Shown here: positions 13,093 to 64,000 of the stretch, one piece after another
Position numbering within the stretch: the first letter of the stretch is position 1
Layout: every line of letters begins with the position of its first letter
Virus record (IMG/VR): IMGVR_UViG_3300033145_001087
Span: 32,001 to 96,000 of that record
Direction: 5' to 3' (one strand)
Source: a virus
Length of the DNA stretch: 64,000 nt
Notes under the pieces: generated by a model
Databases searched by the model: none
What the model saw: the letters and a program-made list of their open reading frames with translations, nothing else
Told to the model about the DNA's origin: nothing
Position numbers and translations under genes: made by a program

Positions 13093-13113
13093 TTTTTTTA
13101 TTTTTTTCTTTTT
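13093..13113 (+). terminator. Oligo-T archaeal terminator
   Basis: TTTTTTTATTTTTTTCTTTTT just after the last + strand gene. Confidence 0.65.
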
Positions 13114-13270: not shown

Positions 13271-13400
13271 GGTAGTCATAACGCCATAGGACGCACAGGG
13301 ATGCGATTTAAGCAACGCTGTTTTTTAGACATACTAGACTACCTCTTTTTGGAGAAGTCTTCTTAAATCAATGTTTCTGTGCGTCCTAGAGCATCCTAGA
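13271..13400. other. Structured non-coding element (nested inverted repeats, possible pseudoknot)
   Basis: TAGGACGCACAG 13287-98 / CTGTGCGTCCTA 13377-88; GATTTAAG 13305-12 / CTTAAATC 13362-69; GGTAGTC 13271-77 / GACTACC 13337-43. Confidence 0.65.
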
Positions 13401-39116: not shown

Positions 39117-39669
39117 TGTTCTCACCTATATTATAATTAAATATATCTTTAAGAAAATTGTAATATTGCTCCCAAGTAATATATTCCATTTCTTGTATTT
39201 TAAATGAATCTGTCCATTGTAATACATCATAAAAATGTTGTTTCTTTATTTCTTTTGGAATATGCTTAGTCCAATCTGTAATATTTACAATGCTCCATTT
39301 TGGAATAAAAGTTATTTTATTATCGTCAATCATACAAAGCCATCTATGATGACAAAATCCGGCATAACTTTCATTACCCTTCCAAGTATCAACACCCTTC
39401 GTACATTCTGTTAATATACTAGGGACGATTATTATACCCGCTTTACTAACACGCATCATTTCTTTACAGACAAAAAGTGGGTCTTTTATATCTTCTAATA
39501 CATTACTACAATATGCTAAATCAAATTCCTTATCTTTAAAAGGCCATTTTTTACATATATTCTGTTGTGTATAATGTAATTTACAATCCTTTGGTTTCTC
39601 TATAATATCTATAATATGCGTAGCATCTTTTTTTGTATTAATTGCTCCTCCAACATCTAAAATTTTCAT
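39109..39669 (-). CDS. Class I SAM-dependent methyltransferase
   Basis: ILDVGG, PFKDKEFD, SNVLED, EMMRV. Confidence 0.85.
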   Translation of the reverse strand: MKILDVGGAINTKKDATHIIDIIEKPKDCKLHYTQQNICKKWPFKDKEFDLAYCSNVLEDIKDPLFVCKEMMRVSKAGIIIVPSILTECTKGVDTWKGNESYAGFCHHRWLCMIDDNKITFIPKWSIVNITDWTKHIPKEIKKQHFYDVLQWTDSFKIQEMEYITWEQYYNFLKDIFNYNIGENNE

Positions 39670-39797: not shown

Positions 39798-40310
39798 CTA
39801 AACTTCATCGTACTGAAGCCGAAATTGTTTGGTCTGTGTTGCCCCCGCACTAGCCGCAGACGTTATACTTGCTTGTATAACAATAAAGTCACTATATCCT
39901 GTAGCTGTTAGACTAGCAGAAAGACTTCCTGTAAAGCCAAGATTAGCCGCTCCTGGGTCTGCTGTAGGCATTACTACACTGGCTTTAGCATCCAAATTAG
40001 TTGTTGGTGTTGTAAAAGTTGTTGTTCCACCATAAGTTGCTGTCGATGCTGAACATTTCAATGATTCTCCTGATACATAACCAGTTCCACTTGAACTCAT
40101 CCAAAGTTGAAGATTTTCAATCCTTGTAAATGTTCCACTCCAATATCCTCTAAACCATTTACTATATGAGTATGTTCCTGCTGTTATAGGATATGTACTT
40201 GGTGCTAGATTTGCTGAGTTATTACTACCCAAATTTAAATTTCCGGCTGTTATATCAGTCGTATCGCCGGCTGTTGCATTATATTCAATAAATGCGAATG
40301 TTGCTGCCAT
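39798..40310 (-). CDS. Ala/Thr/Ser/Gly-rich beta-sandwich structural protein
   Basis: Composition; YSYSKW..RIENLQLW; C-terminal FRLQYDEV; has its own promoter. Confidence 0.6.
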   Translation of the reverse strand: MAATFAFIEYNATAGDTTDITAGNLNLGSNNSANLAPSTYPITAGTYSYSKWFRGYWSGTFTRIENLQLWMSSSGTGYVSGESLKCSASTATYGGTTTFTTPTTNLDAKASVVMPTADPGAANLGFTGSLSASLTATGYSDFIVIQASITSAASAGATQTKQFRLQYDEV

Positions 40311-48061: not shown

Positions 48062-48375
48062 TTTATTTTATCCAATCTATCAAAGTGTGTATGTTTTAAT
48101 TTTGTTTTAATTTTATTATGTAATCGTTCTATATCTCTATATGATAATTCCTTCTTTTCTCTTTTTTGATAAAATCTATGTAATAATGCGTGTGTCAATA
48201 TTAACTGGTCTTGTGTTAATATTTCAACATCCATTTCCTTTGTTATAATAAGGTCCCCCCCGGGGGAATTATCTCCCCCCGAAGGGAATTTAGGTGAGAC
48301 AGACGCACCGGTTACGCCATTATGAAGTTGTGAATCTAATCTTGATAATAATTCTTTATATTTCCTTTGTTTCAT
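48058..48375 (-). CDS. Hypothetical His-rich head-module protein
   Basis: HALLH...LH...HTHFD.LD; ATGA coupling on both sides. Confidence 0.6.
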   Translation of the reverse strand: MKQRKYKELLSRLDSQLHNGVTGASVSPKFPSGGDNSPGGDLIITKEMDVEILTQDQLILTHALLHRFYQKREKKELSYRDIERLHNKIKTKLKHTHFDRLDKIK

Positions 48376-49819: not shown

Positions 49820-49885
49820 ACTTCTCCTATATAAATGTTTCGCTTTTGAAATAGAAACATTTATATACTAGAAGTTACATATAAT
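49820..49885. promoter_or_regulatory. Back-to-back divergent promoters forming an inverted repeat
   Basis: TATATAAATGTTTC 49828-41 / GAAACATTTATATA 49854-67, driving the portal operon (-) and the terminase/glycan operon (+). Confidence 0.85.
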
Positions 49886-49920
49886 TGTATTATATATAAT
49901 ATATTGTTAGGTGATACAGG

Positions 49921-50274
49921 ATGGATGGATTTTTAATTACATATGATTCAAAAAATGATATTTCTAGAGTAAAATTTAATCACATATTATTTGGTAGGAT
50001 ACTTTATAGGACACGAAGAGGCAAACGATATGCTTATTATGTACCTGGTATGTTGGATAATACTCCTTTTTTTAGAATAATGAATTCTAGAATTTTTGTT
50101 CGAGATATAGATACTCTAAATATAGAGGTTTTAAAAGAATATGTTGAATTAAATATAGTAAAATGTATAAGGGAAATAACAGTGAATCATATGAAAACAG
50201 GAGAAAGATATTGGGAAGATTTTGCTAATGAAAAAGGGTTGAATCTTAAACGAGCTAAGAAGAGGACAATATAA
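49921..50274 (+). CDS. Hypothetical, Cas2/VapD-like N-terminus
   Basis: FLITYD first strand; RIMNSRIF. Confidence 0.4.
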   Translation: MDGFLITYDSKNDISRVKFNHILFGRILYRTRRGKRYAYYVPGMLDNTPFFRIMNSRIFVRDIDTLNIEVLKEYVELNIVKCIREITVNHMKTGERYWEDFANEKGLNLKRAKKRTI

Positions 50275-50841
50275 ATGGTATCCGAAAGAAAAGGTAAACA
50301 AGGAAACATTTTAAAAGTAATCGAATTGGGGTTACAAGATAAAGTTTATAATGCTATGAAAAAAACAGGATTCTCTGTTGATGGATTATGTAAAGAATTA
50401 AATGCTACCGGTGTACAGATTTCTTCTCAATCTATTAGTAAATTTATTAAACAAACAAAGAAAGCACAGCAACAGTTAATTAAAAAAGATATTAAAGCAT
50501 CACAAGAGTTAATTAAATTATCTATGGATTATAATAAAGCATTGAAAGATATTTTGAATGAAGTAGAAGAAGTTAAAAACTCTGCAAAAGATGATAAAGA
50601 TTATACAACTTATAATCAACTAATAGGTAGATTGTTACAAGGTATAGAACTATTTGCAAAATTAACAGGAGATATTAAACCAAAAGGAACTACCGATATT
50701 AAAATAATCTATAATGAAATAAATAACAATATAGAACAAGAAATGAAAGATGTAACAAATACTTTAGATACTACCATTAAAATAGATATAGATGAAGAAA
50801 TAACAAAAGAAGATAAAGAAATGGAAAAAATTATAAGGTGA
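50275..50841 (+). CDS. Probable terminase small subunit (HTH + coiled coil)
   Basis: HTH-like SVDGLCKEL..QISSQSISKF; helical C-terminus with IELFAKLTGDI; same operon as TerL. Confidence 0.5.
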   Translation: MVSERKGKQGNILKVIELGLQDKVYNAMKKTGFSVDGLCKELNATGVQISSQSISKFIKQTKKAQQQLIKKDIKASQELIKLSMDYNKALKDILNEVEEVKNSAKDDKDYTTYNQLIGRLLQGIELFAKLTGDIKPKGTTDIKIIYNEINNNIEQEMKDVTNTLDTTIKIDIDEEITKEDKEMEKIIR

Positions 50842-50847: not shown

Positions 50848-51582
50848 ATGAAAAAGAATATATTGATTATAGGGTTAGGAGAAGTTGGTAAGGCAATATA
50901 CAACTTAGAAAAAAAAGCAAAAAATAACATATTTATCTCAGAGTTGAATATGGCACCTTCAAATAATATTAATATTGATGTTGCCCATGTTTGTATACCT
51001 TATGATAAGAGATTTATAAATACTATACTTAAATATTTAAATACTTATAACCCACATCTAACAATTATACATAGTACAGTTAAAGTTGGTTCAAGTAGAT
51101 TAATTTATAAAAAATCAAAAAGATTAATTTCTCATTCTCCTATTATGGGAGTGCACCCACATTTAACGAAAAGTGTTCAGACTTTTAAAAAAATAATAGG
51201 TGGGACAAGTCTTAATGCATCTATAAAAACAAAAAGCCATTTAATTTCCCTAGGAATAAAAACAGAGACTTTTAATAATTCTGACGAATCAGAAGCGTGT
51301 AAGATATTTTCAACATCATATTATGGATTATGTATAGCATATATGAAAGAAATTCATAAATATTGTGAAGAAAATAATTTAGATTTTGGAAATGTCTATA
51401 CTGAAATGAATAACGTTTATAATAAGGGATACGCCAAGATGGGTAAAAAGAATGTAATACGCCCAATATTGAAATATATGAAGGGACCTACGGGAGGACA
51501 TTGTATTTTACCCAATTTAAAATTAATAAAAAAAGATATTAAATTAGCAAAAAAAATATTAGAGTTAGAAAATGAAAAGTAA
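50848..51582 (+). CDS. Short NDP-sugar dehydrogenase (UDP-Glc/GDP-Man/WecC family)
   Basis: GLGEVG, HSTV, SEACK, GGHCI; lacks the C-terminal domain. Confidence 0.8.
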   Translation: MKKNILIIGLGEVGKAIYNLEKKAKNNIFISELNMAPSNNINIDVAHVCIPYDKRFINTILKYLNTYNPHLTIIHSTVKVGSSRLIYKKSKRLISHSPIMGVHPHLTKSVQTFKKIIGGTSLNASIKTKSHLISLGIKTETFNNSDESEACKIFSTSYYGLCIAYMKEIHKYCEENNLDFGNVYTEMNNVYNKGYAKMGKKNVIRPILKYMKGPTGGHCILPNLKLIKKDIKLAKKILELENEK

Positions 51583-52174
51583 TAAAAAAATAATTTTAGG
51601 AGTTGGTAGTGGCAGATGTGGAACGCTTTCATTAGCTGTTTTATTAGACCTACAAAAAGATTCAAAATTTACACATGAACGCCCACCACTTATGCCATTT
51701 GAACCATGTACACATGCCTATGATGCTAAAAAAAAACAAATTTTAGAATTAGAGGATACTTATGTTGGAGATGTAGCGTCTTCACTTATTGGATATACTG
51801 AATGGTTTATTGAAGATTATCCTAATATAAAAATTGTATGCTTAAAACGAAATAAAAAAGAATGTATTGAAAGTTTTTTAAGAAAAACAAAAGGAAGAAA
51901 TAATTTTCAATATGGGAAAGAAGAAAGAACTATTTTTTGTATAACAAGTCCTGACTATTCAGCAGATATTACAAAAAGAGAAGCTGTTGATGAATATTAT
52001 AATGACTATTATCGAATAGCAGAATTTTTAGAAAAAGATTTTCCAAATAATTTTAAAATCTTCAACACAGAAGATTTGAATACTCACAAAGGAGTATCTG
52101 ACATTTTAGAATTTTGTGAGTTTAAGGATAAAACAATATCTATAGGATTACAATTTAACGAGACAAAAAAATGA
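51572..52174 (+). CDS. Sulfotransferase-family protein
   Basis: GSGRCGTLSL 5'-PSB, THE, LKR...IES 3'-PB. Confidence 0.72.
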   Translation: MKSNKKIILGVGSGRCGTLSLAVLLDLQKDSKFTHERPPLMPFEPCTHAYDAKKKQILELEDTYVGDVASSLIGYTEWFIEDYPNIKIVCLKRNKKECIESFLRKTKGRNNFQYGKEERTIFCITSPDYSADITKREAVDEYYNDYYRIAEFLEKDFPNNFKIFNTEDLNTHKGVSDILEFCEFKDKTISIGLQFNETKK

Positions 52175-52446
52175 TAATATCAATATCTTATGGAGAATTT
52201 AATGATAGTAACTTTCAAGAATTATTGGATTACTTAGTACACGTCAATAAAAAACATACCTTGCAGAAATTAATAGTTCATCCATCATACTTTGCAGAGA
52301 ATATGTTAAAACAATTTAATGGTGTTTGGTATGATATAAGATTAAGTAGTTGTATAGAAAAAGGATTTAATAGATTAGAATATGGTAATTTACAACTTGA
52401 AGTAATAGTATGTTCAGTGATGAATGGCAAATGGTGCGTAATTTAA
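52171..52446 (+). CDS. Hypothetical protein
   Basis: ATGA coupling. Confidence 0.55.
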   Translation: MIISISYGEFNDSNFQELLDYLVHVNKKHTLQKLIVHPSYFAENMLKQFNGVWYDIRLSSCIEKGFNRLEYGNLQLEVIVCSVMNGKWCVI

Positions 52447-52458
52447 GGAGTAAAAAAA

Positions 52459-52728
52459 ATGATAAAAGACTGGGTAATGGAGATAGTAAAGATGTATAGT
52501 TTTGTAGATGATATAAAGTATAAAAATCTTTATTATTATATACATTATAAAGTAAATGAAAAAGCAACATACAAAAGAATAAGTTTTCGGGCAACAAGAC
52601 ACCAATTAGAAAAATTAATTGAAAAAATAAAAAAAGAAATTAATTACCTTGAATTAAAAAAGAAAGTAGATAAAAAAATTAGAAACGAGCTTAATAACAA
52701 AGTTCCATTAATTAATATACGTGGGTGA
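52459..52728 (+). CDS. Hypothetical protein
   Basis: AGGAG RBS. Confidence 0.5.
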   Translation: MIKDWVMEIVKMYSFVDDIKYKNLYYYIHYKVNEKATYKRISFRATRHQLEKLIEKIKKEINYLELKKKVDKKIRNELNNKVPLINIRG

Positions 52729-52733
52729 GATTT

Positions 52734-52946
52734 ATGGCAAAAGATACAAAACTAGTTCATATATCAATAGTAGACGCATCAGTAGAAGATATTGAAATGC
52801 TTAGAAAGGCAATAAGCCAAATAAAGGGAGATTTACCTTTCGAATTCTTAATAACAAATGATACTATTCAATTACACGATGTAAAATTCTTAATAGGTGA
52901 ACTATATAAACTTTATAAAATGCAAGAAAAAAGGAAGAAAAAATGA
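52734..52946 (+). CDS. Hypothetical protein
   Basis: GGTGA RBS. Confidence 0.55.
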   Translation: MAKDTKLVHISIVDASVEDIEMLRKAISQIKGDLPFEFLITNDTIQLHDVKFLIGELYKLYKMQEKRKKK

Positions 52947-54007
52947 AGAATAAAAAAAGAATTGGTTTCCTTAGTTTTTGGGGCTGGGGCAGGGGTATGT
53001 GCTATATTACTAAATGTTATGCTCAAATGATTCAAGACGAATATGATGTCTTCATTTTAAAACAAGGAACGAATAAAATAGAAGAAGAGTTTAAACAGAT
53101 TAACGCCACACTAACAGAATATCCCGAATACATTGTTACAAAAGAATTTTTTACTAAGTGGGTTAAAGAAAACAAATTAGATGCTATAGTCTTTAACGAA
53201 TATAAACAATGGAACAGTGATACGAATGAATTAGTAAAAGCAACTAAAGAATTAGGGGTTAAAACATATGGGTATTTAGTTATGGAAAAATTTAAACCAG
53301 AACAAGCGACTGAATACGATAGGATTATAGCACCAACCGTAACGTTTGAACGCTTTATGAGAATATGCCAGGTTAGACATTTTACTTATATACCATTCTC
53401 TTTAGATTTAAATGAATTTCCTGATTTTGAAAGAGATAAAAATAAAAAATTTACATTCTTTCATCCTGGTGGTTGGGGCGGAGTATTTAATAGGAAGAAT
53501 ACTGATTTAGTAATAGATGCATTTAATAAATTAAATGATGATAATACTAAACTTATAATAACTTCACAAAAACCATTGAATAAAAAAATTGATAATAAAA
53601 ATATAGAAATTATAGATAAAAATTTAACAAGAAAAGAAATATTAGATTTATATCAACAAGCAGATGTGGTAGTATTACCAAGTAAATGGGAAACAATTGG
53701 AATACCAATCTTAGAAGCACTTGCATCCAAAACACCTGTGATTACTTCTGATAACCCACCTATGAATGAATTTATTATTGAAGGATTAAATGGTAGTATT
53801 TGTAAATCAGACTTAAAATTAATAAACGATATTTCAATTCCAATAGCAGAGATAGACGAAGATGAATTATCTAAAAAAATGAAATTGATAATGTCCCCTA
53901 TGTATGAAATATTATTAAAAAATTCGAGAAAAGTTATAGAAGAAATCTATAATATAGATAAAAACAAGAACTACTTTTTAGAATTTTTGGAGAAAAATTT
54001 AAAATGA
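52943..54007 (+). CDS. GT4 glycosyltransferase
   Basis: RKN; ADVVVLPSKWETIGIPILEALAS. Confidence 0.9.
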   Translation: MKNKKRIGFLSFWGWGRGMCYITKCYAQMIQDEYDVFILKQGTNKIEEEFKQINATLTEYPEYIVTKEFFTKWVKENKLDAIVFNEYKQWNSDTNELVKATKELGVKTYGYLVMEKFKPEQATEYDRIIAPTVTFERFMRICQVRHFTYIPFSLDLNEFPDFERDKNKKFTFFHPGGWGGVFNRKNTDLVIDAFNKLNDDNTKLIITSQKPLNKKIDNKNIEIIDKNLTRKEILDLYQQADVVVLPSKWETIGIPILEALASKTPVITSDNPPMNEFIIEGLNGSICKSDLKLINDISIPIAEIDEDELSKKMKLIMSPMYEILLKNSRKVIEEIYNIDKNKNYFLEFLEKNLK

Positions 54008-55038
54008 AAATTTTAGGCTTAACACCAAAGAATCCAAATACAGGAGAAACGCCAGAAGAAATGTATCTTAGGAAATTGAGAGATTTAGGTCATGACGTAA
54101 TTATTACAGATAATTGTACTGGGATAACTACAGATATAGATATTATCGTATCTATGTCAGAAGTAACTTGTGAACAAGGATATGTATTATCAAAATTTTA
54201 TAATAAACCATTTTATGCTCATATGGAATGGCTACCAAAATGGCGTATTGGTATAGAAAATGCAAGAACCTGGGGGGAATCTAGAAATTATACTTTCAAA
54301 GAAAAAATGCATTTCATACGTCAGTATTTAGAATATGCAACCTTTTGGCATTTAGCAGATGTAAAAACATTAGCATCCCCTGTTTTTTATAAAGATATGA
54401 AAAACTTTCTTGGTGTACAAGATTTAGAAATAGAGAGTAAAAAACTTGGAGTAGATATGGATAAAATTAATAAATATTTAAATGAAACTGAAACAAGACC
54501 TAAAAAAGAAAATGAAATTACTTGTGTAGCACGTTTTGTTCCACATAAACGAATTCATCATATAATAGAAGCTTTAAAATTAATTAAATTTGATGGAACT
54601 TTTAACCTTGTTGGTTATGGCTCTGAACAACAAAAATATGAAGCTATTAAAGGAAATATGCAGATTAAATATTTTCCTAGTTCAGATAAATTTAAATGTA
54701 TGGATAGGTCTAAGGTTACAATAGCACTTTGGAGTGGTTTAGTCCCAGCAGAATCTATATATCTTGGAACACCTGTAGTTACTTATGATAGCGAATATAT
54801 GAAAGATTTATTTAGTAAGACCCTTTTTTATGCTAAAAATAATAATGTAACTACATTAGCAAAAATGATAAAGAAAGTATTTAATTTTACAGATGATATG
54901 AGAAAGAACATATGTAATAATGGTATAAAAAAGATAGAAGAAGGACAGATAAACACAGTTACCCAAGATGAGTCCGTTAAACAATTAGAAGCATTAATAC
55001 AAAAAGCATATAATAAAAAACATAAAGGTGAAAAATAA
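54004..55038 (+). CDS. GT4-like glycosyltransferase
   Basis: GHDV, LGVD, VARFVPHKR, VGYG, GLVPAESIYLGTPVV. Confidence 0.8.
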   Translation: MKILGLTPKNPNTGETPEEMYLRKLRDLGHDVIITDNCTGITTDIDIIVSMSEVTCEQGYVLSKFYNKPFYAHMEWLPKWRIGIENARTWGESRNYTFKEKMHFIRQYLEYATFWHLADVKTLASPVFYKDMKNFLGVQDLEIESKKLGVDMDKINKYLNETETRPKKENEITCVARFVPHKRIHHIIEALKLIKFDGTFNLVGYGSEQQKYEAIKGNMQIKYFPSSDKFKCMDRSKVTIALWSGLVPAESIYLGTPVVTYDSEYMKDLFSKTLFYAKNNNVTTLAKMIKKVFNFTDDMRKNICNNGIKKIEEGQINTVTQDESVKQLEALIQKAYNKKHKGEK

Positions 55039-56081
55039 TGGGAATGAAACTTGCATTGATTATGGGAACACGACCAGAAATAATTAAGATGATGCCTATA
55101 ATAAAAGAACTTGAAAAAAGAAAAATAGACCATAAAGTTTATTTTACATCCCAACATTTTACTGGTATAGCAGGCACAAAACTTTTCAATGATTTCAAAA
55201 TAAATAACATTATAGAATATGGTAAAAAATTCGACTTTGGGAAAATAAAAGAGTGGGCAACAAACGAATTAAAAGAATATAATCCAGATGTGGTTTTAGT
55301 TCAAGGAGATACTGATTCAGCATTGATAGGTGGTCTTGCCGCCATTAAAGCAAAAATACCTATTGGGCACATCGAGGCTGGATTAAGAAGCTTTAACTTT
55401 CAAGAGCCATACCCAGAAGAGTATAACAGGACTATGTTAGACTCTATCTCAACATATTTGTTTTGCCCGACAATGAATAATTTAGTTAATGTTCAAATAA
55501 CAGGTAATAGGAAAGCTTTTATTGTTGGTAATACTATAATTGACGTTATTAAAGATTATAAAAAAGTAAAGAATGGCAAACAAGTCCTTATAACTCTTCA
55601 TAGAAGAGAAAATTGGGCTAAAATTCCAAAGTTATGTAAAGCTCTTGCATCCTTAGCAGATGCATTTTCAGAATATGAATTCGTATTTGTTAAACATGTA
55701 AATAAAAAATTAGCTAAAATAATAGATATTGAATTAAAAGAAAGTAAAATTAAACTGTTACCACCACAATCATACGCAGACTTTATAAAATTAATGCAAA
55801 AATCGAAACTAATAATTTCAGATTCAGGCGGCGTATTGGAAGAAGCATCTTATTTAAATATTCCAGTTATATCCGTTCGTAATGTTACTGAACGAAAGGA
55901 AAGTATAATACTTAAAAAAGCTATTTTAGTAGGAACAGAACCAGAATCATTAAAACAATATGTTTCTGATTTTTTGCTTAATAATGACTATTATAAAGAT
56001 ATTAAATTGACACCGTGTCCATTTGGTGATGGTGATAGTGCAAAAAGAATAGTAGATATTTTAGAAAAGGTGGTAAAATGA
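55038..56081 (+). CDS. wecB: UDP-GlcNAc 2-epimerase (non-hydrolysing)
   Basis: GTRPE, QGDT, HIEAGLRS, PEEYNR, TLHRREN, DSGGVLEE. Confidence 0.95.
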   Translation: MGMKLALIMGTRPEIIKMMPIIKELEKRKIDHKVYFTSQHFTGIAGTKLFNDFKINNIIEYGKKFDFGKIKEWATNELKEYNPDVVLVQGDTDSALIGGLAAIKAKIPIGHIEAGLRSFNFQEPYPEEYNRTMLDSISTYLFCPTMNNLVNVQITGNRKAFIVGNTIIDVIKDYKKVKNGKQVLITLHRRENWAKIPKLCKALASLADAFSEYEFVFVKHVNKKLAKIIDIELKESKIKLLPPQSYADFIKLMQKSKLIISDSGGVLEEASYLNIPVISVRNVTERKESIILKKAILVGTEPESLKQYVSDFLLNNDYYKDIKLTPCPFGDGDSAKRIVDILEKVVK

Positions 56082-57076
56082 ACATTCTTTGTACTGGTGG
56101 GGCAGGATTCATTGGTAGCCATGTTGTTGATGAATTAATAGATAGAGGACATAACGTTTTAATTTTAGATGATTTCTCAGTAGGAGAAATGAAAAATATA
56201 AATCCTAAAGCTAATTTTGTAATAGGGTCTATAACAGATGAACGATTAGTAAAAGTTTTAATGAAAGGTATAGATGCAGTATTTCACTTTGCATATGACG
56301 CAACAGAATGTAAAAGTATCTTTAGTCCAGTATTAGATACAGAAACAAACTTATTGGGCAGTATGATTGTTTTGAAAGAAGCAATAAACGCAGGAGTAGA
56401 GAAATTTGTTTTTCCTAGTTCTGTTCTTGTATATGGTAAACCAAAAGAATTACCAATGAAAGAAACTCATACTAGAATTCCAGATGACCCATATAGCGTT
56501 TCTAAATTAGCATTTGAAGAATACTTAAGAGTTTACTATGAACTTGGTAAAATTAAACCATATATATTAAGATTTAATAATACTTACGGACCTAGACTTC
56601 GGTTAGATAATCCCTATAAAGGAGCAACACAAATATTTATATCTAGATGTTTAAAAGGTCAACCACCAATAATCTTTGGAGATGGTTCTCAGACAAGGGC
56701 GTGGACATATGTAGGAGATATTAAAAAACCTATAGTAGATATTATAGAACATGATGAATTAATCAATAATCCAATTAATATTGGGTCTGATTGTATACAC
56801 AGTGTTTCAAAAATTGCTAATTTCATAAAAGATGAAATAAATAAAAATCTTAAGATAGAATATTTACCTAAGAGACAAAAAGATATTCCTCACGCATATT
56901 GTGATGTTACAAAAATGCAAGAAATATTTGATTATAAATGTATGGTTGATTTTAAAGAAGGTTTAAGAAAGACTATAGCGTGGGCTAAAAAAGAACCAGA
57001 CATTAAATTTAAATATAATTGGGTAGTGGAAATACCAAGTTTACTTGATAATGCTTATAAAAAGAAAAAAATATAG
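56078..57076 (+). CDS. NAD-dependent sugar epimerase/dehydratase (extended SDR)
   Basis: TGGAGFIG, YSVSK, GDGSQTR. Confidence 0.92.
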   Translation: MNILCTGGAGFIGSHVVDELIDRGHNVLILDDFSVGEMKNINPKANFVIGSITDERLVKVLMKGIDAVFHFAYDATECKSIFSPVLDTETNLLGSMIVLKEAINAGVEKFVFPSSVLVYGKPKELPMKETHTRIPDDPYSVSKLAFEEYLRVYYELGKIKPYILRFNNTYGPRLRLDNPYKGATQIFISRCLKGQPPIIFGDGSQTRAWTYVGDIKKPIVDIIEHDELINNPINIGSDCIHSVSKIANFIKDEINKNLKIEYLPKRQKDIPHAYCDVTKMQEIFDYKCMVDFKEGLRKTIAWAKKEPDIKFKYNWVVEIPSLLDNAYKKKKI

Positions 57077-57085
57077 GGTGTAAAT

Positions 57086-57721
57086 ATGGGTAAAAAAGAA
57101 ATAATTGATGATTTTCATATTTTATATTATGATTCAAAAAAACACGAACAACTCAACTGGTTAGGTATACAAGTATTGAAAACACCTATGGACTTAATGA
57201 TAATACAAGAAATCATATGTGAAATAAAACCAGATGTTATTATCGAAACAGGAACATATAAAGGAGGGTCAGCATATTTTATGGCATCTATACTTGATTT
57301 AATCAATAAAGGAAAAATAATTACTATAGACAATCAAGTATCATATAAAGGAGAATATCCAAAACATAAAAGAATAAAATATTTAACAGGAAATTCTTGT
57401 GAAGAAAGTATTTTAAAATCCATTAAAAATCAAATTAAAAAAAACGATATTGTTTTAGTCTTATTAGATAGTGCTCATACAGGAAATCATGTACTTAGTG
57501 AATTAAATATTTATAGTAAGTTTGTAACAAAAGGAAGTTATTTAATATGTGAAGACACAAATTTGAATTCAAATCCTATTAGGACGCCAGAACCAGATGG
57601 AGGACCTATGAAAGCAGTAATAACTTTTTTAAAGGAAAACGATAATTTTATAATAGATAAAACAAAAGAAAAACTATTACTAACATATTTTCCAAATGGT
57701 TGGTTAAAGAGGATAAAATGA
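57086..57721 (+). CDS. CmcI/rhamnosyl O-methyltransferase family
   Basis: WLG..K.P.D, KPDVIIETGT..GGS, LDSAH, GSYLICEDT. Confidence 0.85.
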   Translation: MGKKEIIDDFHILYYDSKKHEQLNWLGIQVLKTPMDLMIIQEIICEIKPDVIIETGTYKGGSAYFMASILDLINKGKIITIDNQVSYKGEYPKHKRIKYLTGNSCEESILKSIKNQIKKNDIVLVLLDSAHTGNHVLSELNIYSKFVTKGSYLICEDTNLNSNPIRTPEPDGGPMKAVITFLKENDNFIIDKTKEKLLLTYFPNGWLKRIK

Positions 57722-58533
57722 AAGAAGTACTAATAGTAATTGCAAGCTTTGCAGATGGATACTTAGATGACTTGTTGAAATCAATAAAAGAAAACACTAC
57801 TGATGTAACCTATTCTATCCAAGTTGTAGATAATCACAGAGATAAAAAAAAACTCGAAGAATGTGTAATTCCAATTTGTAAAAAACATAAAGTCGAGCTT
57901 TATTTAGATACTAAGATTACTGGATATGGGGATGCACTTAATACCGGTGTAAATATATCAGATATAGAATCTAAATATATACTTTATATGGATTCAGATA
58001 CCTTAGTTAGTAAAGGATGGCTTAGAGAATTAATTGATTGTTTTAAACGGCATAAAAAAGAAGACTGTATGATGGTAGGACCCTTAGTCAAAGATTTTAA
58101 CAATAATTACTTACCGGGAGTAAATGAATTGTATGGTAAACCAGACGATATAAAAGAAAAAGATATTTTACTAAAAGATGATTCTTATTTAATAGGTGTG
58201 TGTGTATTAAGAGAACGAGAAACTTTACCATTATTTCAATGGGATAAAAATTATATACGAGCTTATTATGAAGATAATGATTTAACAAAACAAGTTAATT
58301 TTTTAAATGGTAAAATATATGTAGCTGGAAAGTCTCTTATGTTTCATAAAGTAAATTCTAGTCACGAAACAATGAAAACTGAAAATATTAACCCTTCAAG
58401 CATTGGAGCGTTTAATAGATATTATTTTACAGAAAAATGGAAAACGATTTATGAAAATATATATATAGAGGATATACATAAATTAACATTAGGATATGCG
58501 TTTAAACGAGAAATACCCGAGGATTTTAAATGA
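57718..58533 (+). CDS. GT2 glycosyltransferase
   Basis: VVDN, YMDSD, YYEDND. Confidence 0.88.
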   Translation: MKEVLIVIASFADGYLDDLLKSIKENTTDVTYSIQVVDNHRDKKKLEECVIPICKKHKVELYLDTKITGYGDALNTGVNISDIESKYILYMDSDTLVSKGWLRELIDCFKRHKKEDCMMVGPLVKDFNNNYLPGVNELYGKPDDIKEKDILLKDDSYLIGVCVLRERETLPLFQWDKNYIRAYYEDNDLTKQVNFLNGKIYVAGKSLMFHKVNSSHETMKTENINPSSIGAFNRYYFTEKWKTIYENIYIEDIHKLTLGYAFKREIPEDFK

Positions 58534-59252
58534 TTACTTTATTTATACCAGCATACAATGAAGAAACTATAATAAGAAAAAACGTGACGTTTGTATTTGA
58601 ATATATAAAGAAAAACAAACTACCTATACAACTTATTATTTTAAATGATGGCTCTACTGATAATACAAAGAAAATATTAAATACATTAAAAAAGAAAATA
58701 GATATTACTGTTATTAATGATAACGGTCCTAGTAGACGAGAAAATTTAATAAAACAAATGATAAATGTTAAAACCAATTATGTTGGCTTTATGGATTGTG
58801 ATTTAGCTACTGATTTATCAGATTTAAAAAATCTTGTAATTAACATTAAAAATTATGATATAGTTTCAGGAAGTAGATACTTATCATCTTCAACAATAAA
58901 ACGAAGTAATACTAGAAAAGTTATTAGTTTTTTGTTTAATAATAGTATCAAATTATTATTTAGAAGTAAGATTCGTGACCATGAATGTGGTTTTAAATTA
59001 TTTAATACTAAAGCAATTAAAAAAATAATTACATATACAGGATATGGAGAACACAAAAAAAATAGAAAAATGTTTTGGGATACTGAAATGTGGATATATG
59101 CACAAAACTTAAATATGAAAATCTTGGAAATTCCTATAATTTGGCACGAAGGAGATAAATCTGCTCTAAGATTTAAAACAGAAATTATAATGATACCTTA
59201 TATAATAAATTTTTGGGTGAAAAGAGAGTGGATGAAAAAGAACTTAAAATAA
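58530..59252 (+). CDS. GT2, polyprenol/dolichol-phosphate glycosyltransferase-like
   Basis: IPAYNEE, NDGSTD, MDCD, GSRY, DHECGFK, FWDTE, EIPIIW. Confidence 0.82.
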   Translation: MITLFIPAYNEETIIRKNVTFVFEYIKKNKLPIQLIILNDGSTDNTKKILNTLKKKIDITVINDNGPSRRENLIKQMINVKTNYVGFMDCDLATDLSDLKNLVINIKNYDIVSGSRYLSSSTIKRSNTRKVISFLFNNSIKLLFRSKIRDHECGFKLFNTKAIKKIITYTGYGEHKKNRKMFWDTEMWIYAQNLNMKILEIPIIWHEGDKSALRFKTEIIMIPYIINFWVKREWMKKNLK

Positions 59253-59842
59253 TCGGTAATGACCCTACCTATTGGTGGTTCAAAGCTAAGAATGAAATTA
59301 TAGAGACTTATATAGATACTACTAAAGAAATATTAAATGTTGGTGCAGGAACTACTAATTTTTATTATGCAACAAATTATAACGGTTTTGCTGATTGTAT
59401 GCCTTTTGCAGATAACGAATTTCATTATGTTATATTAGCAGATGTTTTAGAACATATACCAGATGGTTTTAGGATAAACACCTTAAAAGAAATAAGGCGA
59501 GTATTAAAAAGAAAAGGAAAACTAATTATAACTGTTCCAGCATATGGGTTTTTGTATAACGCACATGATAGATTTTTACATCACTTTTTACGTTATTCAA
59601 AAAAAGAATTACTATCTGAATTAAAACAAGCTGGATTTAAAATAAAAAAAGTTAGATACTGGAATTCAATCCTTTGTCCAATTATTATGATTATGAAATT
59701 ATATAATAAAAAATACGAGTCTCAATCAGATTTAAAAAAAATACCACGATGTATCAATTGGTTGTTATATAAAATATTAAAAACAGACGAAAGGATTGAA
59801 TTGCCTTTTGGAATAACACTTTTAGGAGTATTTGAAAAATGA
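59228..59842 (+). CDS. Class I SAM methyltransferase
   Basis: LNVGAG, DVLEH, TVPA, HD..LHHFLRY. Confidence 0.85.
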   Translation: MDEKELKIIGNDPTYWWFKAKNEIIETYIDTTKEILNVGAGTTNFYYATNYNGFADCMPFADNEFHYVILADVLEHIPDGFRINTLKEIRRVLKRKGKLIITVPAYGFLYNAHDRFLHHFLRYSKKELLSELKQAGFKIKKVRYWNSILCPIIMIMKLYNKKYESQSDLKKIPRCINWLLYKILKTDERIELPFGITLLGVFEK

Positions 59843-60705
59843 TAAGAAAAAGATTAGGACAACTTAGATATGTAAAAAACCCATTACAAATATGGAGATT
59901 ATTATTTAGTAGAGTAAAATCTATAGAAATAGCTGTTAATTATGTATGTAATAAAAAATGCCCTGGTTGTTATGCAAGAAACCTTAGGGCAGACCAAGAA
60001 AAAATGTTTTTAACACCAAAAGATATTAAAGAAATATGTGAAAAATATAAACCTGCTCATATTAATATTACTGGCGGAGAACCAATGTTAAATCCAAAGC
60101 TTTTTGAAATTATTCAAACTATACCAAAATCTATAATAGTTAGTATGGTTACTAATGGTGATTTATTTAAAAACCCACCAGATGTTATAGATTTTGAAAC
60201 AGAAATTGATTATATCAAATTATGGAATTTAAAATCAAGTGGTTTAAATACTATTCAAATAAGTTATGGTTCTAATTATAATTGTATTTGGAATAAAGAA
60301 TTAGCAAAATATTCTAAAAGAGAAGGATTAAATGTTTGTTTAAGCGTTACAAATGTTTATAAAGAAAGAAAACATATTTTACAAGCTATTAGAATAGCAG
60401 AAGAAAATGGATACCATGTATTATTTAATACTCCTGGTGTTGGAATGGAAGACCAGTTTGATTATCAAACATATTTTACATATAGGAGTCATCCTTTAGT
60501 AAGAGAAGATAATATGTTCTGGAATGGAGCAGATGTCTGTCCAGCAGGACTTAAAAAATTTTATATTTCTGCGGATAAGAGTATTTATCCATGTGATAGA
60601 TTACATGATGAGAAATATTCATCCTATAAAGAAATGAGAAAACAATATAAAGGATTAAAGAAAGTATATTGTAGAAGATATTGTAAGATGGTGGAAAATG
60701 ATTAA
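59839..60705 (+). CDS. Radical SAM protein with Twitch/SPASM-like tail
   Basis: CNKKCPGC, TGGEP, VTNG, CPAG..IYPC. Confidence 0.88.
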   Translation: MIRKRLGQLRYVKNPLQIWRLLFSRVKSIEIAVNYVCNKKCPGCYARNLRADQEKMFLTPKDIKEICEKYKPAHINITGGEPMLNPKLFEIIQTIPKSIIVSMVTNGDLFKNPPDVIDFETEIDYIKLWNLKSSGLNTIQISYGSNYNCIWNKELAKYSKREGLNVCLSVTNVYKERKHILQAIRIAEENGYHVLFNTPGVGMEDQFDYQTYFTYRSHPLVREDNMFWNGADVCPAGLKKFYISADKSIYPCDRLHDEKYSSYKEMRKQYKGLKKVYCRRYCKMVEND

Positions 60706-61657
60706 TGTAAATTATATTGGTTATGATGGTTTTCAAAACTATGGTGATGATGTAAATAAAGAAATAGTTATGAAACTTGGCTTTCAACACGATGAAAACT
60801 CTGATATTGTATTTATAGGTCCTGGAACAGGATTTCCAATTCCTAAAAGTAAACAACAATTAATTAAAGAAAATACTAAAGAAGTAATAGTGTTCGGAAC
60901 TGGTTGTCATACTAAAAAATTTTATAAAGATGAAAACTCATTTGAAGAAGATATGAAATTTACAAAAGAATTATTGAAAAAAGCCAAATATATAGGAGTC
61001 AGAGATAGTTATACGCAAAAGACTATAGGTTGTGGAAAGGTTATTGGTGACCCTTTCTTTTTGTTATCAATACCAAAAAAAGAAGAGATACCAGAAAAAT
61101 ATGTAATACTTATTATTGGTCGTGCAGGATTTAATTGTTGGGGAGAAGTTGATGGAGAATTTAATTCTTTGAAAAATACTATAAAATTTACTAAAAACTT
61201 CATAATGAAAAAATTAGGTTTCAAAGTTAAAATATTTTATCTTTTTAACAATGATGCCCCCTTATCTTATGAAATATCTTCATATTTAAATGAGTCGGTA
61301 TTTAAACGAATTGAAATGTATGAAAACTTTTTAACTGAATATAGGAATGCAGAATTTATTATATCGTATAAATTACATGGAATGATTACTGCACTATTAA
61401 CTAATACTCCCATTATACCAATAGAATACGTCCCAAAAATAACCAATGTAGCTAGTGATTTTAAAATTGACAATCTAGTATTAAAATCTAATGAGGTAAC
61501 AGAAAAACAATTAGAAAATAAATATAATTTATTAAAAAACTGGGATTATACCTTTATTAAAAATAAAAGACAAAAATATATTAATTTACAATATAAATTT
61601 ATAGAACAGATTAAAAAAATATATGGTGAAAACAATGAAAATAATATTAATGGGTAG
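60698..61657 (+). CDS. Polysaccharide pyruvyl transferase family
   Basis: NYGD, IGVRD, GDP, KLHGMI. Confidence 0.8.
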   Translation: MINVNYIGYDGFQNYGDDVNKEIVMKLGFQHDENSDIVFIGPGTGFPIPKSKQQLIKENTKEVIVFGTGCHTKKFYKDENSFEEDMKFTKELLKKAKYIGVRDSYTQKTIGCGKVIGDPFFLLSIPKKEEIPEKYVILIIGRAGFNCWGEVDGEFNSLKNTIKFTKNFIMKKLGFKVKIFYLFNNDAPLSYEISSYLNESVFKRIEMYENFLTEYRNAEFIISYKLHGMITALLTNTPIIPIEYVPKITNVASDFKIDNLVLKSNEVTEKQLENKYNLLKNWDYTFIKNKRQKYINLQYKFIEQIKKIYGENNENNING

Positions 61658-62708
61658 TTTTACAGATATGCAAACAGGTGTTTATATAGGAGATACTTTT
61701 ACAAGTATGAAACATGATATTTATGGTATAGATATAAGGAGAATCTATAAAACTGTCGGTGCTGAAAAAACGCAAGAAACTGTAATAAAAGAATTAATAA
61801 AATTAAATCTTAAACCAGACCTAATTTTAATACTAAAAGGTTTAGAATTATCCCCAAAAACTATACGAGCTATTAAAGATATGTATCCTAAAGCTATTTA
61901 TGCTAATTGGTTCTTTGATAAATTTCTACAAGAAGAACCAATATGGAAAACGGAATCATATTTAAAAATAATTAAAGAATTTGATTATTTCTTTTGTAGT
62001 TTAAAAGGAGTAGCTGATAAACTAAATGATTTAGGATATAAGAATGTGAAATACTTAGATGAAGGATGTGAGCCAAAACGACACAGTGAAATATATTTAA
62101 ATAATTTTCAAAAAAAAAAATATGCAAGTGACGTATCTTTTATTGGGAATATAGGATATCTATTACAACATCATTTGCGATTACCAATGTTAAAGATTAT
62201 TGCAGAAGAAGGATTTCGATTACAAATCTTCGGTTCGTTATGTTGTGATATAAAACACGTACCTACAAAAGTAAGACCGTGTTTGACACAAATACCTGTT
62301 ATTAATGAAGACCATAGTAAAGTTGTTCAATCATCTTTAATTAATTTAGGAATAGACCAAGACTTAGGTATTGATATGGGGCATAGTGCGAGAGTTTATA
62401 GAGTCCTTTGTGCCGGTGGTTGTTATCTAACTACTAATACTAAAGGATTAGATAAAATGTTTAAAACCAATAAAAAAGACGATGACTTAACAGGAGAAGA
62501 AGAAATAGTAATTTTTGATAACAAAGAGGATTTAATTAAAAAACTAGACTTTCTTTTAGAGCACGATGACATAAGAGAACAAATAGGAAAAAATGGTCAA
62601 AAGAAAGTATTAAAATATCACACATTTAAACATAGGTGTGAAGAAATGTTAAAAATAATAAAAGGTGAAAAAAATGAAAGAGGTGATAAAAGATGGACAA
62701 AAAAATAA
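61635..62708 (+). CDS. CgeB-like glycosyltransferase
   Basis: WFFD, DVSFIG, SLINL, RVYRVLCAGG, GQKKVLKYHTFKHR. Confidence 0.8.
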   Translation: MKIILMGSFTDMQTGVYIGDTFTSMKHDIYGIDIRRIYKTVGAEKTQETVIKELIKLNLKPDLILILKGLELSPKTIRAIKDMYPKAIYANWFFDKFLQEEPIWKTESYLKIIKEFDYFFCSLKGVADKLNDLGYKNVKYLDEGCEPKRHSEIYLNNFQKKKYASDVSFIGNIGYLLQHHLRLPMLKIIAEEGFRLQIFGSLCCDIKHVPTKVRPCLTQIPVINEDHSKVVQSSLINLGIDQDLGIDMGHSARVYRVLCAGGCYLTTNTKGLDKMFKTNKKDDDLTGEEEIVIFDNKEDLIKKLDFLLEHDDIREQIGKNGQKKVLKYHTFKHRCEEMLKIIKGEKNERGDKRWTKK

Positions 62709-62866
62709 CTAAATTTAATTTTGATACAATAAACGAACCGCATCTTATTTTTACAAAGGACTGGTTAAAGAACAAGGCAAAAGAAAATAAAGACATTTAT
62801 TTCTATTTCCCTTCTAATATTGATATTAATACACAATTTCCATTAAAATTTGAGGTAAAAAAATGA
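62693..62866 (+). CDS. 57-aa hypothetical (not in ORF track)
   Basis: GAGGTGA RBS; ATGA overlap with next gene. Confidence 0.5.
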   Translation: MDKKITKFNFDTINEPHLIFTKDWLKNKAKENKDIYFYFPSNIDINTQFPLKFEVKK

Positions 62867-63081
62867 AGATAATAGATTGGGACGAAAAACTGTTTGAAAC
62901 ACTTGCTTGTGGTAATTATACAGCAAAAGACCACACAGTTTTAAGAAAATTAGCAAAATGGATAGGTGATGTGTCTGGAAATGTAAACGTAACTATGCGA
63001 TTATACCATATAGCAGACAAAATGAAAAACGAATATCATAAGAAACAATGGGAAGATACGTATCACGGCTATAAAGAATAA
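62863..63081 (+). CDS. Hypothetical protein
   Basis: GAGGT RBS. Confidence 0.55.
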   Translation: MKIIDWDEKLFETLACGNYTAKDHTVLRKLAKWIGDVSGNVNVTMRLYHIADKMKNEYHKKQWEDTYHGYKE

Positions 63082-63093
63082 GAGGTAAATAAA

Positions 63094-63288
63094 ATGAAAG
63101 AAGATGAATTAACAAAGAAATTTATAGAATACGAAACAACAATAAAAAAACACGCAGAAGTTGTTAATACTTTAAATATAAACCAACAGCTTTTAATAAA
63201 AAAAATAGGAGAGATGGAAAAGAATTTAGAACCAAAGCCAAAAGAAGAAGAAAAAAAAGAGGAGAAAAAAGATGGTGAGACTAAATAA
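63094..63288 (+). CDS. Small coiled-coil protein
   Basis: GAGGT RBS. Confidence 0.55.
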   Translation: MKEDELTKKFIEYETTIKKHAEVVNTLNINQQLLIKKIGEMEKNLEPKPKEEEKKEEKKDGETK

Positions 63289-63460
63289 ATGTGGTCATCC
63301 AGACCATTGGGTTTTTAGATTAACAGGTGCGGGAAAGAAATTTTCATATTGTTTAGGATGTTTAATAGAAAAAACAGAGATAGATAATTTCGAAACATAT
63401 AAAAATCCCTTCCTTAAATCTTCGAAGAAAATAAAACCAATAACAAAAGAGAAGAAATAA
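63272..63460 (+). CDS. Small putative Zn-binding protein
   Basis: CGH...CLGC. Confidence 0.5.
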   Translation: MVRLNKCGHPDHWVFRLTGAGKKFSYCLGCLIEKTEIDNFETYKNPFLKSSKKIKPITKEKK

Positions 63461-63461
63461 T

Positions 63462-64000
63462 ATGCGAACGTTTAAACATATCTATATAGATTATTGTACT
63501 TGGATAGTTGAAAAAACTGGAAATAGAGACTACTCTTATGAGGCTTTAGTAGAAAAATATGGGGAACAAAATATAGACGTTGTTTTATATAAAGACCTAT
63601 TAAAAAAATTCTACGATAAAAATTTTGGTTTCTTTTATTTTTCTAAATTTTTAATTGGAGATTTACAAGAAGTAGGCTATCCAAAACCCTTTAGATATAA
63701 TACTCTGCTTAGGAAATGGCATAAACTTATACAAACACATAAATATTTAGCTATTCTTTGTGCACGAGGTCATGGAAAAAGTGTTTACTTTTCTCAAGTA
63801 AATAATATATATGATATGTTTTTATATAAATTTAAGAGGATTATAATAATTTCTGCAAGTCAGGAACAAGCAAACGAACACATAGACAATATAAAGATAC
63901 TTGTAGATAATAATGAATGGCTTTCCGAAAAGAAAGATAATAAACGGTGGGCTGTTGAACGAATCAGCTATAATAGTGGTTTTATTATGGCCGCTGGTAT
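63462..64000 (+). CDS. Terminase large subunit, N-terminal ATPase (3'-truncated by window; not in ORF track)
   Basis: Own translation: MRTFKHI...AILCARGHGKS (Walker A)...IIIISASQEQA...; open to window end. Confidence 0.85.
   Translation, partial: MRTFKHIYIDYCTWIVEKTGNRDYSYEALVEKYGEQNIDVVLYKDLLKKFYDKNFGFFYFSKFLIGDLQEVGYPKPFRYNTLLRKWHKLIQTHKYLAILCARGHGKSVYFSQVNNIYDMFLYKFKRIIIISASQEQANEHIDNIKILVDNNEWLSEKKDNKRWAVERISYNSGFIMAAG

Follow-up and report, generated by a model that had tools for sequence, protein, structure and literature searches.

A virus-encoded glycan cluster best explained as one version of a variable slot in the packaging operon of archaeal-type tailed viruses

The stretch of DNA analysed here (the window) is 64,000 nucleotides (nt) long and corresponds to bases 32001-96000 of the 111,430-bp virus record IMGVR_UViG_3300033145_001087. 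At positions 50848-62708, on the + strand, it carries a cluster of genes for the synthesis and decoration of a glycan. The best explanation for this cluster is that this virus has its own version of a glycan slot shared across the family, located in the packaging operon of ~100-kb archaeal-type tailed viruses, in which two conserved glycosyltransferases (GTs), hereafter the left and right anchors, enclose a variable cargo of sugar genes. Because the same two end enzymes frame genes that are exchanged from virus to virus, the glycans are expected to be strain-specific across the family.

Related loci were gathered by searching public contigs with the portal protein, the CgeB-like GT that forms the right anchor, and the large terminase (TerL). 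More than 80 were obtained, from many independent metagenomes; where individual loci must be told apart, they are given L numbers. In every contig that spans the region, the gene order is the same: a gene for a protein of 117 amino acids (aa), a gene resembling that of the small terminase (TerS-like), a short dehydrogenase-like gene, genes for 89-aa and 73-aa proteins, the GT4 anchor, the cargo, the CgeB-like anchor, and TerL. Ten contigs span the slot as judged by the TerS-like and CgeB-like markers and 13 as judged by both anchors, with partial contigs in addition. The CgeB-like anchor adjoins TerL in these relatives either directly or after one to three small open reading frames (ORFs). This arrangement is retained down to 40-47% TerL identity (L093, L009) and is lost in viruses with just 29-32% TerL identity.

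The cargo, by comparison, ranges from 0 to 10 genes (-3 to 8981 bp) among the 13 loci with both anchors, and at least nine distinct cargo sets occur among them. The virus examined here has nine cargo genes over 7.6 kb, which places it among the largest. Other sets consist of a GDP-mannose 4,6-dehydratase (GMD) with a DegT aminotransferase, sometimes accompanied by an FkbM methyltransferase and a cytidylyltransferase; of TagD-/TagF-like glycerophosphate genes with DUF2061; of a GT2 with a radical S-adenosylmethionine (SAM)/SPASM enzyme; of WecB alone; or of a pyruvyl transferase alone. At the lower extreme, L016 and L030 hold no cargo, and their minimal slots contain only the two soluble anchors. 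A block of two GT2 enzymes, a methyltransferase and a radical SAM enzyme (GT2a-GT2b-methyltransferase-radical SAM) is common to our virus and L014 at 52-70% identity and is absent elsewhere.

The left anchor (GT4a) is 49-57% identical to its counterparts in relatives (34% in L093), and the CgeB-like anchor is 41-55% identical in close relatives and 34% in the distant L009. For TerL, whose full ORF encodes 557 aa (genome 95462-97135), the values are 53-68% and, in L009, 40%. Thus, the anchors diverge like core genes and shared cargo blocks do so similarly, so there is no sign of very recent capture. Two fixed transferases framing exchanged genes imply strong diversifying selection on the viral glycan, for which host recognition, defence evasion, and particle stability are possible drivers. 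A dedicated packaging-operon site at which sugar genes are exchanged resembles the diversification of bacterial O-antigens. In one of the cargo sets (L004:6018-7787, and also L050), genes for a TagD-like cytidylyltransferase and a TagF-like CDP-glycerol glycerophosphotransferase stand together with one for a small DUF2061 membrane protein, and this combination implies that an archaeal-type virus makes a glycerophosphate decoration like that of teichoic acids.

The genes of the slot in our virus are as follows (all on the + strand).

49921..50274, +: 117-aa protein, first gene of the unit; no Pfam or PHROG match; 10 related loci have a homologue at this place
50275..50841, +: 188-aa putative small terminase (TerS-like), left border of the slot; no significant family match
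50848..51582, +: short nucleoside-diphosphate (NDP)-sugar-dehydrogenase-like (UDPG_MGDP_dh-like) protein, 244 aa; PF00984, 24.3 bits (<25.4)
51572..52174, +: sulfotransferase-like protein, 200 aa, weak call; PF17784, 23.7 against 22.8; PF13469, 25.1 against 27
52171..52446, +: 91-aa ORF; no family match; not found in relatives
52459..52728, +: 89-aa small protein before the left anchor; no family match; same position in most relatives
52725..52946, +: 73-aa small ORF (family f5); overlaps each neighbour by 4 nt
52943..54007, +: GT4, left anchor (GT4a), 354 aa, core gene of the virus family; PF00534, E 1e-21
54004..55038, +: second GT4 (GT4b), 344 aa, cargo; PF00534, E 3e-14
55038..56081, +: WecB, non-hydrolysing UDP-GlcNAc 2-epimerase, cargo; PF02350, E 5e-78
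56078..57076, +: short-chain dehydrogenase/reductase (SDR) nucleotide-sugar epimerase/dehydratase, 332 aa; PF01370, E 2e-47
57086..57721, +: CmcI/rhamnosyl O-methyltransferase family protein, 211 aa; PF04989, 191 bits, E 2e-56
57700..58533, +: GT2 (GT2a), 277 aa; PF00535, E 4e-12
58530..59252, +: GT2 of the polyprenyl-phosphate GT clade (GT2b), 240 aa; catalytic domain like those of dolichyl-phosphate mannose synthase (DPMS), ArnC and GtrB
59213..59842, +: class-I SAM methyltransferase, 209 aa; PF08241, E 2e-7; 52% identical homologue in L014
59839..60705, +: radical SAM enzyme, 288 aa; PF04055, 47.3 bits (>29.5); CxxxCxxC motif; 70% identical homologue in L014
60698..61657, +: polysaccharide pyruvyl transferase (PS_pyruv_trans), 319 aa; PF04230, 71.2 bits (>25.3), E 2e-19
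61623..62708, +: CgeB-like GT-B, right anchor, core gene of the virus family; PF13524 (Glyco_trans_1_2), 73.5 bits (cut-off 25), E 2e-20
62863..63461, +: three small ORFs (72, ~64, and 62 aa) between the right anchor and TerL
63462..64000, +: N-terminal part of TerL, right border of the slot; phrog_38, E 3e-15

Between 50848 and 62708 there are 16 co-directional genes, as counted from the ORF listing together with our own ORF call. Their junctions are mainly overlaps of 1-11 nt or gaps of no more than 12 nt, and three larger overlaps (22-40 nt) hinge on the choice of an upstream TTG or ATG start. A first-pass annotation of this DNA had described a single operon, and the enzymes that it listed for the operon are indeed present. 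However, it missed the 73-aa gene at 52725-52946, a member of a family of 14 that always lies immediately before the left anchor, and the unit is longer than was proposed. Specifically, the same-direction run begins at 49921 with the 117-aa gene and the TerS-like gene and continues to TerL at 63462, and no strong terminator was seen after 62708. The tentative TerS assignment comes from gene position; the protein has a helix-turn-helix-like N-terminus and a coiled coil, and homologues 48-60% identical precede the slot in the relatives.

The cluster was also described in that annotation as encoded by the virus. A 114-bp exact direct terminal repeat at the contig ends indicates that the genome is closed and complete, and this closure, together with the presence of the same slot in related viral contigs, establishes the viral origin of the genes.

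Enzyme classes were called with Pfam and NCBIfam. Only WecB clears the cut-off of a curated equivalog model, and all other calls stand at the family or superfamily level. With this resolution, the enzyme classes first assigned to these genes hold, the sulfotransferase being borderline, and the set as a whole bears out the description of a glycan synthesis and decoration pathway. WecB scores 292 bits against TIGR00236 (cut-off 210.15) over residues 3-344 of 347. The viral WecB clade is 44-55% identical, the best matches outside it reach at most 41% (those named by source are cellular), and a scan of genome contigs for a cellular donor with WecB alone gave nothing. The best NCBIfam matches of the SDR enzyme, namely GalE, LegB, RmlB, and TviC, are all under cut-off. 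The same is true for GT4b, which best matches the protein O-GT SdgA (E 1e-9, far below cut-off), and for the CmcI-type protein against NF045824 (116 bits, <400). The pyruvyl transferase scores 47 bits against the CsaB model TIGR03609 (<213) and is therefore a superfamily member rather than a CsaB orthologue. GT2a, whose true start is probably the ATG at 57718, has homologues of 55-59% identity in L004, L008, L014, and L028. No NCBIfam match was obtained for the sulfotransferase-like protein, and no homologue exists among the related loci compared, making it private to this virus.

For the CgeB-like anchor, the AlphaFold2 model (pLDDT 93.5) has a retaining GT-B fold whose nearest neighbours are MshA, BshA, GlgM, and glycogen synthase, and the DUF3880 model scores 23.2 bits, just under its cut-off of 25.2. 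More than 120 homologues were found at 42-60% identity, and all 120 among the matches listed lie on metagenomic contigs of at most 115 kb. A profile search with the left anchor returned generic GT4 structures only. Thus, fold and profile searches of both anchors give generic GT-B/GT4 neighbours that are uninformative on the class of acceptor.

One proposal of the first-pass annotation is not supported. It paired WecB with a WecC-type dehydrogenase to produce UDP-ManNAcA. Full NDP-sugar 6-dehydrogenases (WecC/Ugd) have three domains and about 390-440 aa. The 244-aa protein encoded here has about half that length, with Rossmann and central domains and without the C-terminal NDP-sugar-binding domain that would hold the substrate. 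It scores 31 bits against TIGR03026 (WecC/Ugd), for which membership begins at 189.8, and UDP-glucose dehydrogenases in the Protein Data Bank (PDB) match it over residues 52-184 only. Moreover, because its gene lies outside the variable region, as part of the family core, and is present with or without WecB, it is not a WecC partner for WecB. Eleven aligned viral homologues share a core of ~245 aa with GxGxxG and GGHC motifs. The latter is kept in all but one (FGHC in L008), and its cysteine, which we take from knowledge of the family to be catalytic, is invariant. We speculate that the protein could be an oxidoreductase whose substrate is not a free NDP-sugar. The longer forms of the gene are HNH fusions and not versions with a sugar-binding domain. 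In these (L004:1481-2857 and L016:174-1331), an HNH-type endonuclease-like domain and a helix-turn-helix region are fused to the C-terminus, as though a homing endonuclease had inserted itself behind the gene.

The earlier call of a lipid-carrier GT fares better. Both profile and fold place GT2b clearly within the polyprenyl-phosphate GT clade, from which transfer of a sugar to dolichyl or undecaprenyl phosphate is predicted. A profile built with 35 homologues matches Pyrococcus DPMS (PfDPMS, PDB 5mlz) at E 5e-36 over positions 2-232, followed by ArnC (E 3e-27) and GtrB (E 4e-26), with alignments that span essentially the whole catalytic domain. Likewise, the top-ranked Foldseek hits of the AlphaFold2 model (pLDDT 95.4) are all ArnC, DPMS, or GtrB (TMq 0.67-0.74). 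The protein contains no 19-residue window with a Kyte-Doolittle mean above 1.6, and thus has no transmembrane domain. At 240 aa, it ends after the interface helices, compared to 301-355 modelled residues (322-374-aa chains) in solved members of the clade, and its homologues in DPANN archaea are equally short. The closest cellular homologues with a named source come from Woesearchaeota (49%) and Nanoarchaeia (43%), and others carry the JGI labels "AglD" or dolichyl-phosphate beta-glucosyltransferase. A homologue occurs in just one (L014) of the 16 related loci compared, so GT2b is cargo and not core.

The first-pass annotation saw no AglB or flippase in the window, and this absence extends to the complete genome and to eight related records, in which neither STT3 (AglB, PF02516) nor a Wzx-type flippase (PF01943) was detected with models that do match in archaeal controls, although the host may supply both. 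This genome also has no initiating transferase of the WecA/AglH type (Glycos_transf_4). Across 22 non-redundant loci, none of the 181 cassette genes encodes a polytopic membrane protein, an exporter, a polymerase, or an oligosaccharyltransferase. For our virus, all 17 proteins of the cluster and its flanks lack transmembrane-like segments (Kyte-Doolittle mean >1.6), except for one marginal window (1.70) in the sulfotransferase-like protein.

The missing export machinery, the position of the genes, and precedents from CgeB and from mycobacteriophages lead us to favour late glycosylation of virion proteins in the cytoplasm, a reading to which we assign about an even chance. In Bacillus subtilis, CgeB is proposed, with preliminary in-vitro evidence, to glycosylate the crust protein CgeA directly, at Thr112 (PMC13577073). 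PMC12619734, citing Freeman et al. 2023, describes phage-encoded GTs that glycosylate the capsid and tail tube of mycobacteriophages. The slot examined here lies between the TerS-like and TerL genes and adjoins the portal and capsid genes, so that its GT genes fall within the presumptive late block. No tyrosine integrase was found in this genome, and this, together with the tight same-direction run with terminase genes, suggests late expression and a virulent virus.

According to this proposal, the cargo would make UDP-ManNAc (by means of WecB) and a second, epimerised sugar (by means of the SDR enzyme), and GT4b and the two GT2 enzymes might add three further sugars. The chain could then be decorated with O-methyl groups by the CmcI-type and class-I methyltransferases, with a pyruvate ketal, possibly with sulfate, and by an undefined radical SAM step. 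Its assembly would take place in the cytoplasm at a late stage of infection, directly onto the proteins of the virus particle. One anchor may prime the protein, as proposed for B. subtilis CgeB on CgeA, and the other may extend the chain, such that each virus lineage would acquire its own surface glycan. The target is most likely the virus particle, and several proteins are candidate acceptors.

Two of these candidates, predicted from sequence, are paralogues with an N-terminal hydrophobic anchor. The 902-aa protein at 33036..35744 (-) contains 37 N-x-S/T sequons (z 7.0 versus shuffles), and the 1688-aa protein at 15458..20524 (-), in the distal-tail position, contains 55 (z 5.3). The claim that the virus encodes sequon-dense proteins is accordingly upheld for these two, whose enrichment exceeds that expected from composition. 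Only the C-terminal domain of the 902-aa protein was found in relatives, in one of three, and the related records are incomplete. A 170-aa Ser/Thr/Ala-rich protein (39798-40310, -) is a third candidate, which might be an O-glycosylation acceptor or a particle decoration. Its fold in the Atlas is a beta-sandwich of the Ig-like or TasA-like type, and its family is almost exclusively from Uroviricota. Its gene lies just upstream of a methyltransferase gene (39109-39669, -) and of the gene for an 819-aa fusion protein (36666-39125, -).

Several points weigh against cytoplasmic glycosylation of the particle. Ser/Thr-rich stretches of the mycobacteriophage kind are absent from the capsid, portal, and tail-tube proteins, and occur only in the 170-aa Ig-like protein and the 1688-aa protein. 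We infer late expression from gene position alone. The clade membership of GT2b points to a lipid-linked step in this virus, and the anchored proteins enriched in N-x-S/T fit extracellular, AglB-type glycosylation better than a cytoplasmic one. In addition, a lipid route is compatible with the missing membrane proteins, because soluble GT4 and GT2 enzymes act on lipid-linked acceptors in N-glycan and O-antigen pathways.

These points lend some weight to the alternative first put forward for this cluster, in which the glycan feeds into the N-glycosylation line of the host. Viral enzymes would build or remodel a dolichol-linked oligosaccharide at the cytoplasmic face of the membrane, and the host flippase and AglB would transfer it to secreted proteins, thereby re-dressing both the host surface and the sequon-dense giant proteins of the virus. 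We regard this as possible but rather unlikely, and as the less likely half of the earlier reading. Its best evidence is GT2b, which falls into the DPMS/ArnC/GtrB clade by profile (E 5e-36) and fold (TMq ~0.7) and whose closest named cellular homologues are from DPANN archaea, with "AglD" labels among the rest. The two anchored paralogues, with their 37 and 55 sequons (z 7.0 and 5.3), would be natural recipients, and archaeal-type PCNA, RFC, and PolB are encoded in the genome. The mixture of WecB, GT2/GT4, and methyltransferase genes resembles archaeal agl clusters, a likeness whose established basis is the agl pathways of Haloferax and Methanococcus. Surveys that list GT and nucleotide-sugar genes of DPANN/CPR (candidate phyla radiation) viruses as auxiliary genes of the host surface read them in the same way (PMC11310336, PMC12647753).

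Several observations speak against this model. GT2b lacks a transmembrane domain and is variable, being shared with L014 alone among 16 loci, and the conserved enzymes are soluble GT-B proteins, which in the minimal slots of L016 and L030 are all that is present. Despite widely varying glycan chemistry, no flippase, oligosaccharyltransferase, or polymerase is encoded by any of the 181 cassette genes. The genes are co-directional with the terminase in a virus without an integrase, and re-dressing a host just before its lysis would bring no obvious benefit. Furthermore, it is not evident that the sequon-rich proteins are inherited together with the slot, and the Asn/Ser/Thr periodicity of beta-helical fibres could raise sequon counts. 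For these reasons, and because the closest demonstrated systems are cytoplasmic, delivery into the host line appears less likely. Its fullest version, in which a virulent virus of a DPANN-like archaeon reprogrammes host dolichol N-glycosylation through a swappable cassette, and AglB places a methylated and pyruvylated glycan on the envelope and on the sequon-dense giants, is more doubtful still. If true, part of the infection apparatus of a tailed virus would be matured outside the cell.

A division of labour is also conceivable, although improbable, in which the anchors glycosylate virion proteins in the cytoplasm while the GT2a-GT2b-methyltransferase-radical SAM module makes a lipid-linked sugar for host enzymes outside the cell. 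This block is transmitted as a whole (L014 has it at 52-70% identity), and its distribution differs from that of the anchors. However, the scheme is less economical than either single model.

Glycosylation of viral DNA by these transferases is much less probable again. The genes do lie between the TerS-like and TerL genes, the genome encodes an N6/N4 methylase and a QueC-like fragment, and phage GTs can build DNA glycans (Pyle et al. 2024, as cited in PMC12619734). However, the complete genome has no hydroxymethylase of the thymidylate-synthase type, and GT4, GT2, and CgeB-like enzymes in combination with pyruvyl, O-methyl, and glycerophosphate decoration are typical of surface glycans.

Finally, misassembly of host DNA onto a viral contig, for which nothing was found other than the placement of one related contig in a bacterial genome bin, is excluded in practice by closure through the 114-bp terminal repeat, by the identical flanked slot in independent assemblies from many samples, and by the virus-only clades of WecB and the anchors; the guanine-plus-cytosine (GC) content of the cluster (0.25-0.29) also matches that of the genome (0.297), so that the check for chimeric host DNA came out against a chimera. 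Lysogenic serotype conversion was set aside, given that there is no integrase.

To our knowledge, proof that viruses make glycans exists for giant eukaryotic viruses and for a few mycobacteriophages, and in archaeal tailed viruses only single GT genes have been noted. What appears new here is that so large and complete a pathway occurs in an archaeal-type virus family. Further new features are the slot, whose two anchors enclose 0-10 exchangeable genes, a DPMS-type GT that lacks a membrane domain, and a conserved half-length dehydrogenase-like protein.

The closest parallel to cytoplasmic glycosylation of the particle is offered by mycobacteriophages. As described by Freeman et al. 2023 (cited in PMC12619734), Che8, Corndog, and Myrna likewise carry GT genes, some with methyltransferase genes, among their late or structural genes; their particle proteins receive the glycan in the cytoplasm, and the gene sets vary by phage cluster. 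Compared to 2-4 genes in those phages, the present cluster has ~16, makes its own nucleotide sugars, and includes pyruvyl, perhaps sulfo, and radical SAM steps. It also differs in its two fixed anchors with swappable cargo and in its archaeal-type replication genes, its capsid and tube proteins lack the Ser/Thr-rich tail, and it is known from genes alone.

Similarly, the cgeAB/sps crust system of B. subtilis (PMC13577073, PMC7439481) has a CgeB-family GT-B (PF13524) beside small proteins, and with accessory sugar genes builds a glycan in the cytoplasm on a self-assembling protein shell. The kinship between the two systems is at the Pfam level only. Giant viruses, including the Megavirinae, whose glycosylation clusters are clade-specific (PMC10117803), and chlorovirus PBCV-1, likewise encode rare bacterial-type sugars and GTs independently of the host, with clade-specific content, and glycosylate the surface proteins of their particles in the cytoplasm. 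However, they infect eukaryotes, belong to another realm, and use non-orthologous enzymes, and no terminase-flanked slot has been described for them.

Two cellular systems share the gene content or the layout but not the location. Archaeal agl clusters contain GT2/GT4, methyltransferase, and WecB-type enzymes with dolichol-phosphate-type GT2 proteins (AglD/AglJ/AglK-like), whereas these viruses have no AglB, flippase, or membrane-embedded component, and their dolichol-phosphate-type GT is not conserved and lacks a transmembrane domain. Bacterial O-antigen and capsule loci have conserved flanks, a hypervariable, exchangeable middle that sets the glycan chemistry, and similar decorations (pyruvate, methyl, glycerophosphate, and amino sugars). 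In contrast, the viral locus lacks wzx, wzy, an ABC exporter, and an initiating phosphoglycosyltransferase, and sits in a packaging operon. Among archaeal viruses themselves, some with known or predicted small-genome hosts carry GT and sugar-nucleotide genes, and single GT genes have been noted near the capsid or tail genes of marine tailed viruses (PMC11706807). Neither this survey nor those of DPANN/CPR viruses (PMC11310336, PMC12647753) describe more than single genes, and no two-anchor slot, hypervariable cargo, or terminase position is reported in them.

The two anchors, WecB, and the DPMS-type GT without a membrane domain are expressible targets for an acceptor search. The enzymes for pyruvyl, O-methyl, and possibly sulfo transfer, along with the short dehydrogenase-like protein, may also be of use in glyco-engineering.

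This virus is likely to infect an archaeon, plausibly one of the DPANN group, and the source habitats are anoxic saline lakes and sediments. Its genome carries genes for a family-B polymerase (PolB) and an RFC-like clamp loader, to which archaeal RFC small subunits are the closest solved structures (E 3e-34), compared to E 1e-27 to 1e-26 for eukaryotic RFC and T4 gp44. A PCNA-like protein scores above the cut-off of the PCNA_N model, which matches in archaeal controls only. The capsid protein gave zero matches when 50,697 phage records were searched for a cultured relative. A conflicting, though weak, hint comes from a related 65-kb contig (L086, CAYVYZ010000002.1) found by a profile scan of genome contigs with the CgeB-like alignment, which is binned in a 1.7-Mb bacterial metagenome-assembled genome (MAG) named Planctomycetia. 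The GC content of the viral contig is 0.34 versus 0.355 for this low-GC MAG, which has a cobalamin riboswitch and lacks PCNA. Loci L099-L101 are grouped with L086 in this observation. We consider the binning to be a coincidence or an error, and the assignment of a host needs care. At window positions 953-5697 (+), genes for an anaerobic ribonucleotide reductase and its activase lie together with those for an N6/N4 DNA methylase, a B12-binding radical SAM protein, and the C-terminal part of a QueC-like protein. This set indicates an anaerobic host and possibly DNA base modification.

Other features of the window are located as follows.

24969-26075: tail tube
36666..39125, -: 819-aa GT2-GT4-methyltransferase fusion (Pfam) in the tail/fibre module
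45245-46288: HK97-type major capsid protein, near the cluster
48372-49775, -: portal, near the cluster

The 819-aa fusion was considered as a second core glycan gene and rejected, as only weak matches to its methyltransferase domain were present in eight related records.

A shared RNA operator for the glycan cluster was also rejected. The window contains 33 copies of the hairpin-loop motif AATNCAAT against 39.6 expected, which is no enrichment, and the motif is absent from the + strand leaders of the cluster. The loop motif AATACAAT has one copy at 49884-49891 (-), in the 5′ leader of the portal gene, and none in these + strand leaders.

The three small ORFs that separate the right anchor from TerL are each equipped with a GAGGT-type ribosome-binding site. 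The last of them (63272-63461, +) encodes a 62-aa Cys/His-rich protein (C-x4-H ... C-x2-C) and ends directly before the TerL start codon; it might represent a zinc-ribbon protein that is coupled to the terminase. PolB of this virus (window 6263-9484) contains a LAGLIDADG domain. In addition, TerL is split or much enlarged in six relatives (L004, at 11672-13341, and L007, L011, L012, L022, and L037), reaching 880-1753 aa compared to ~557 aa, which suggests inteins or inserted endonucleases.

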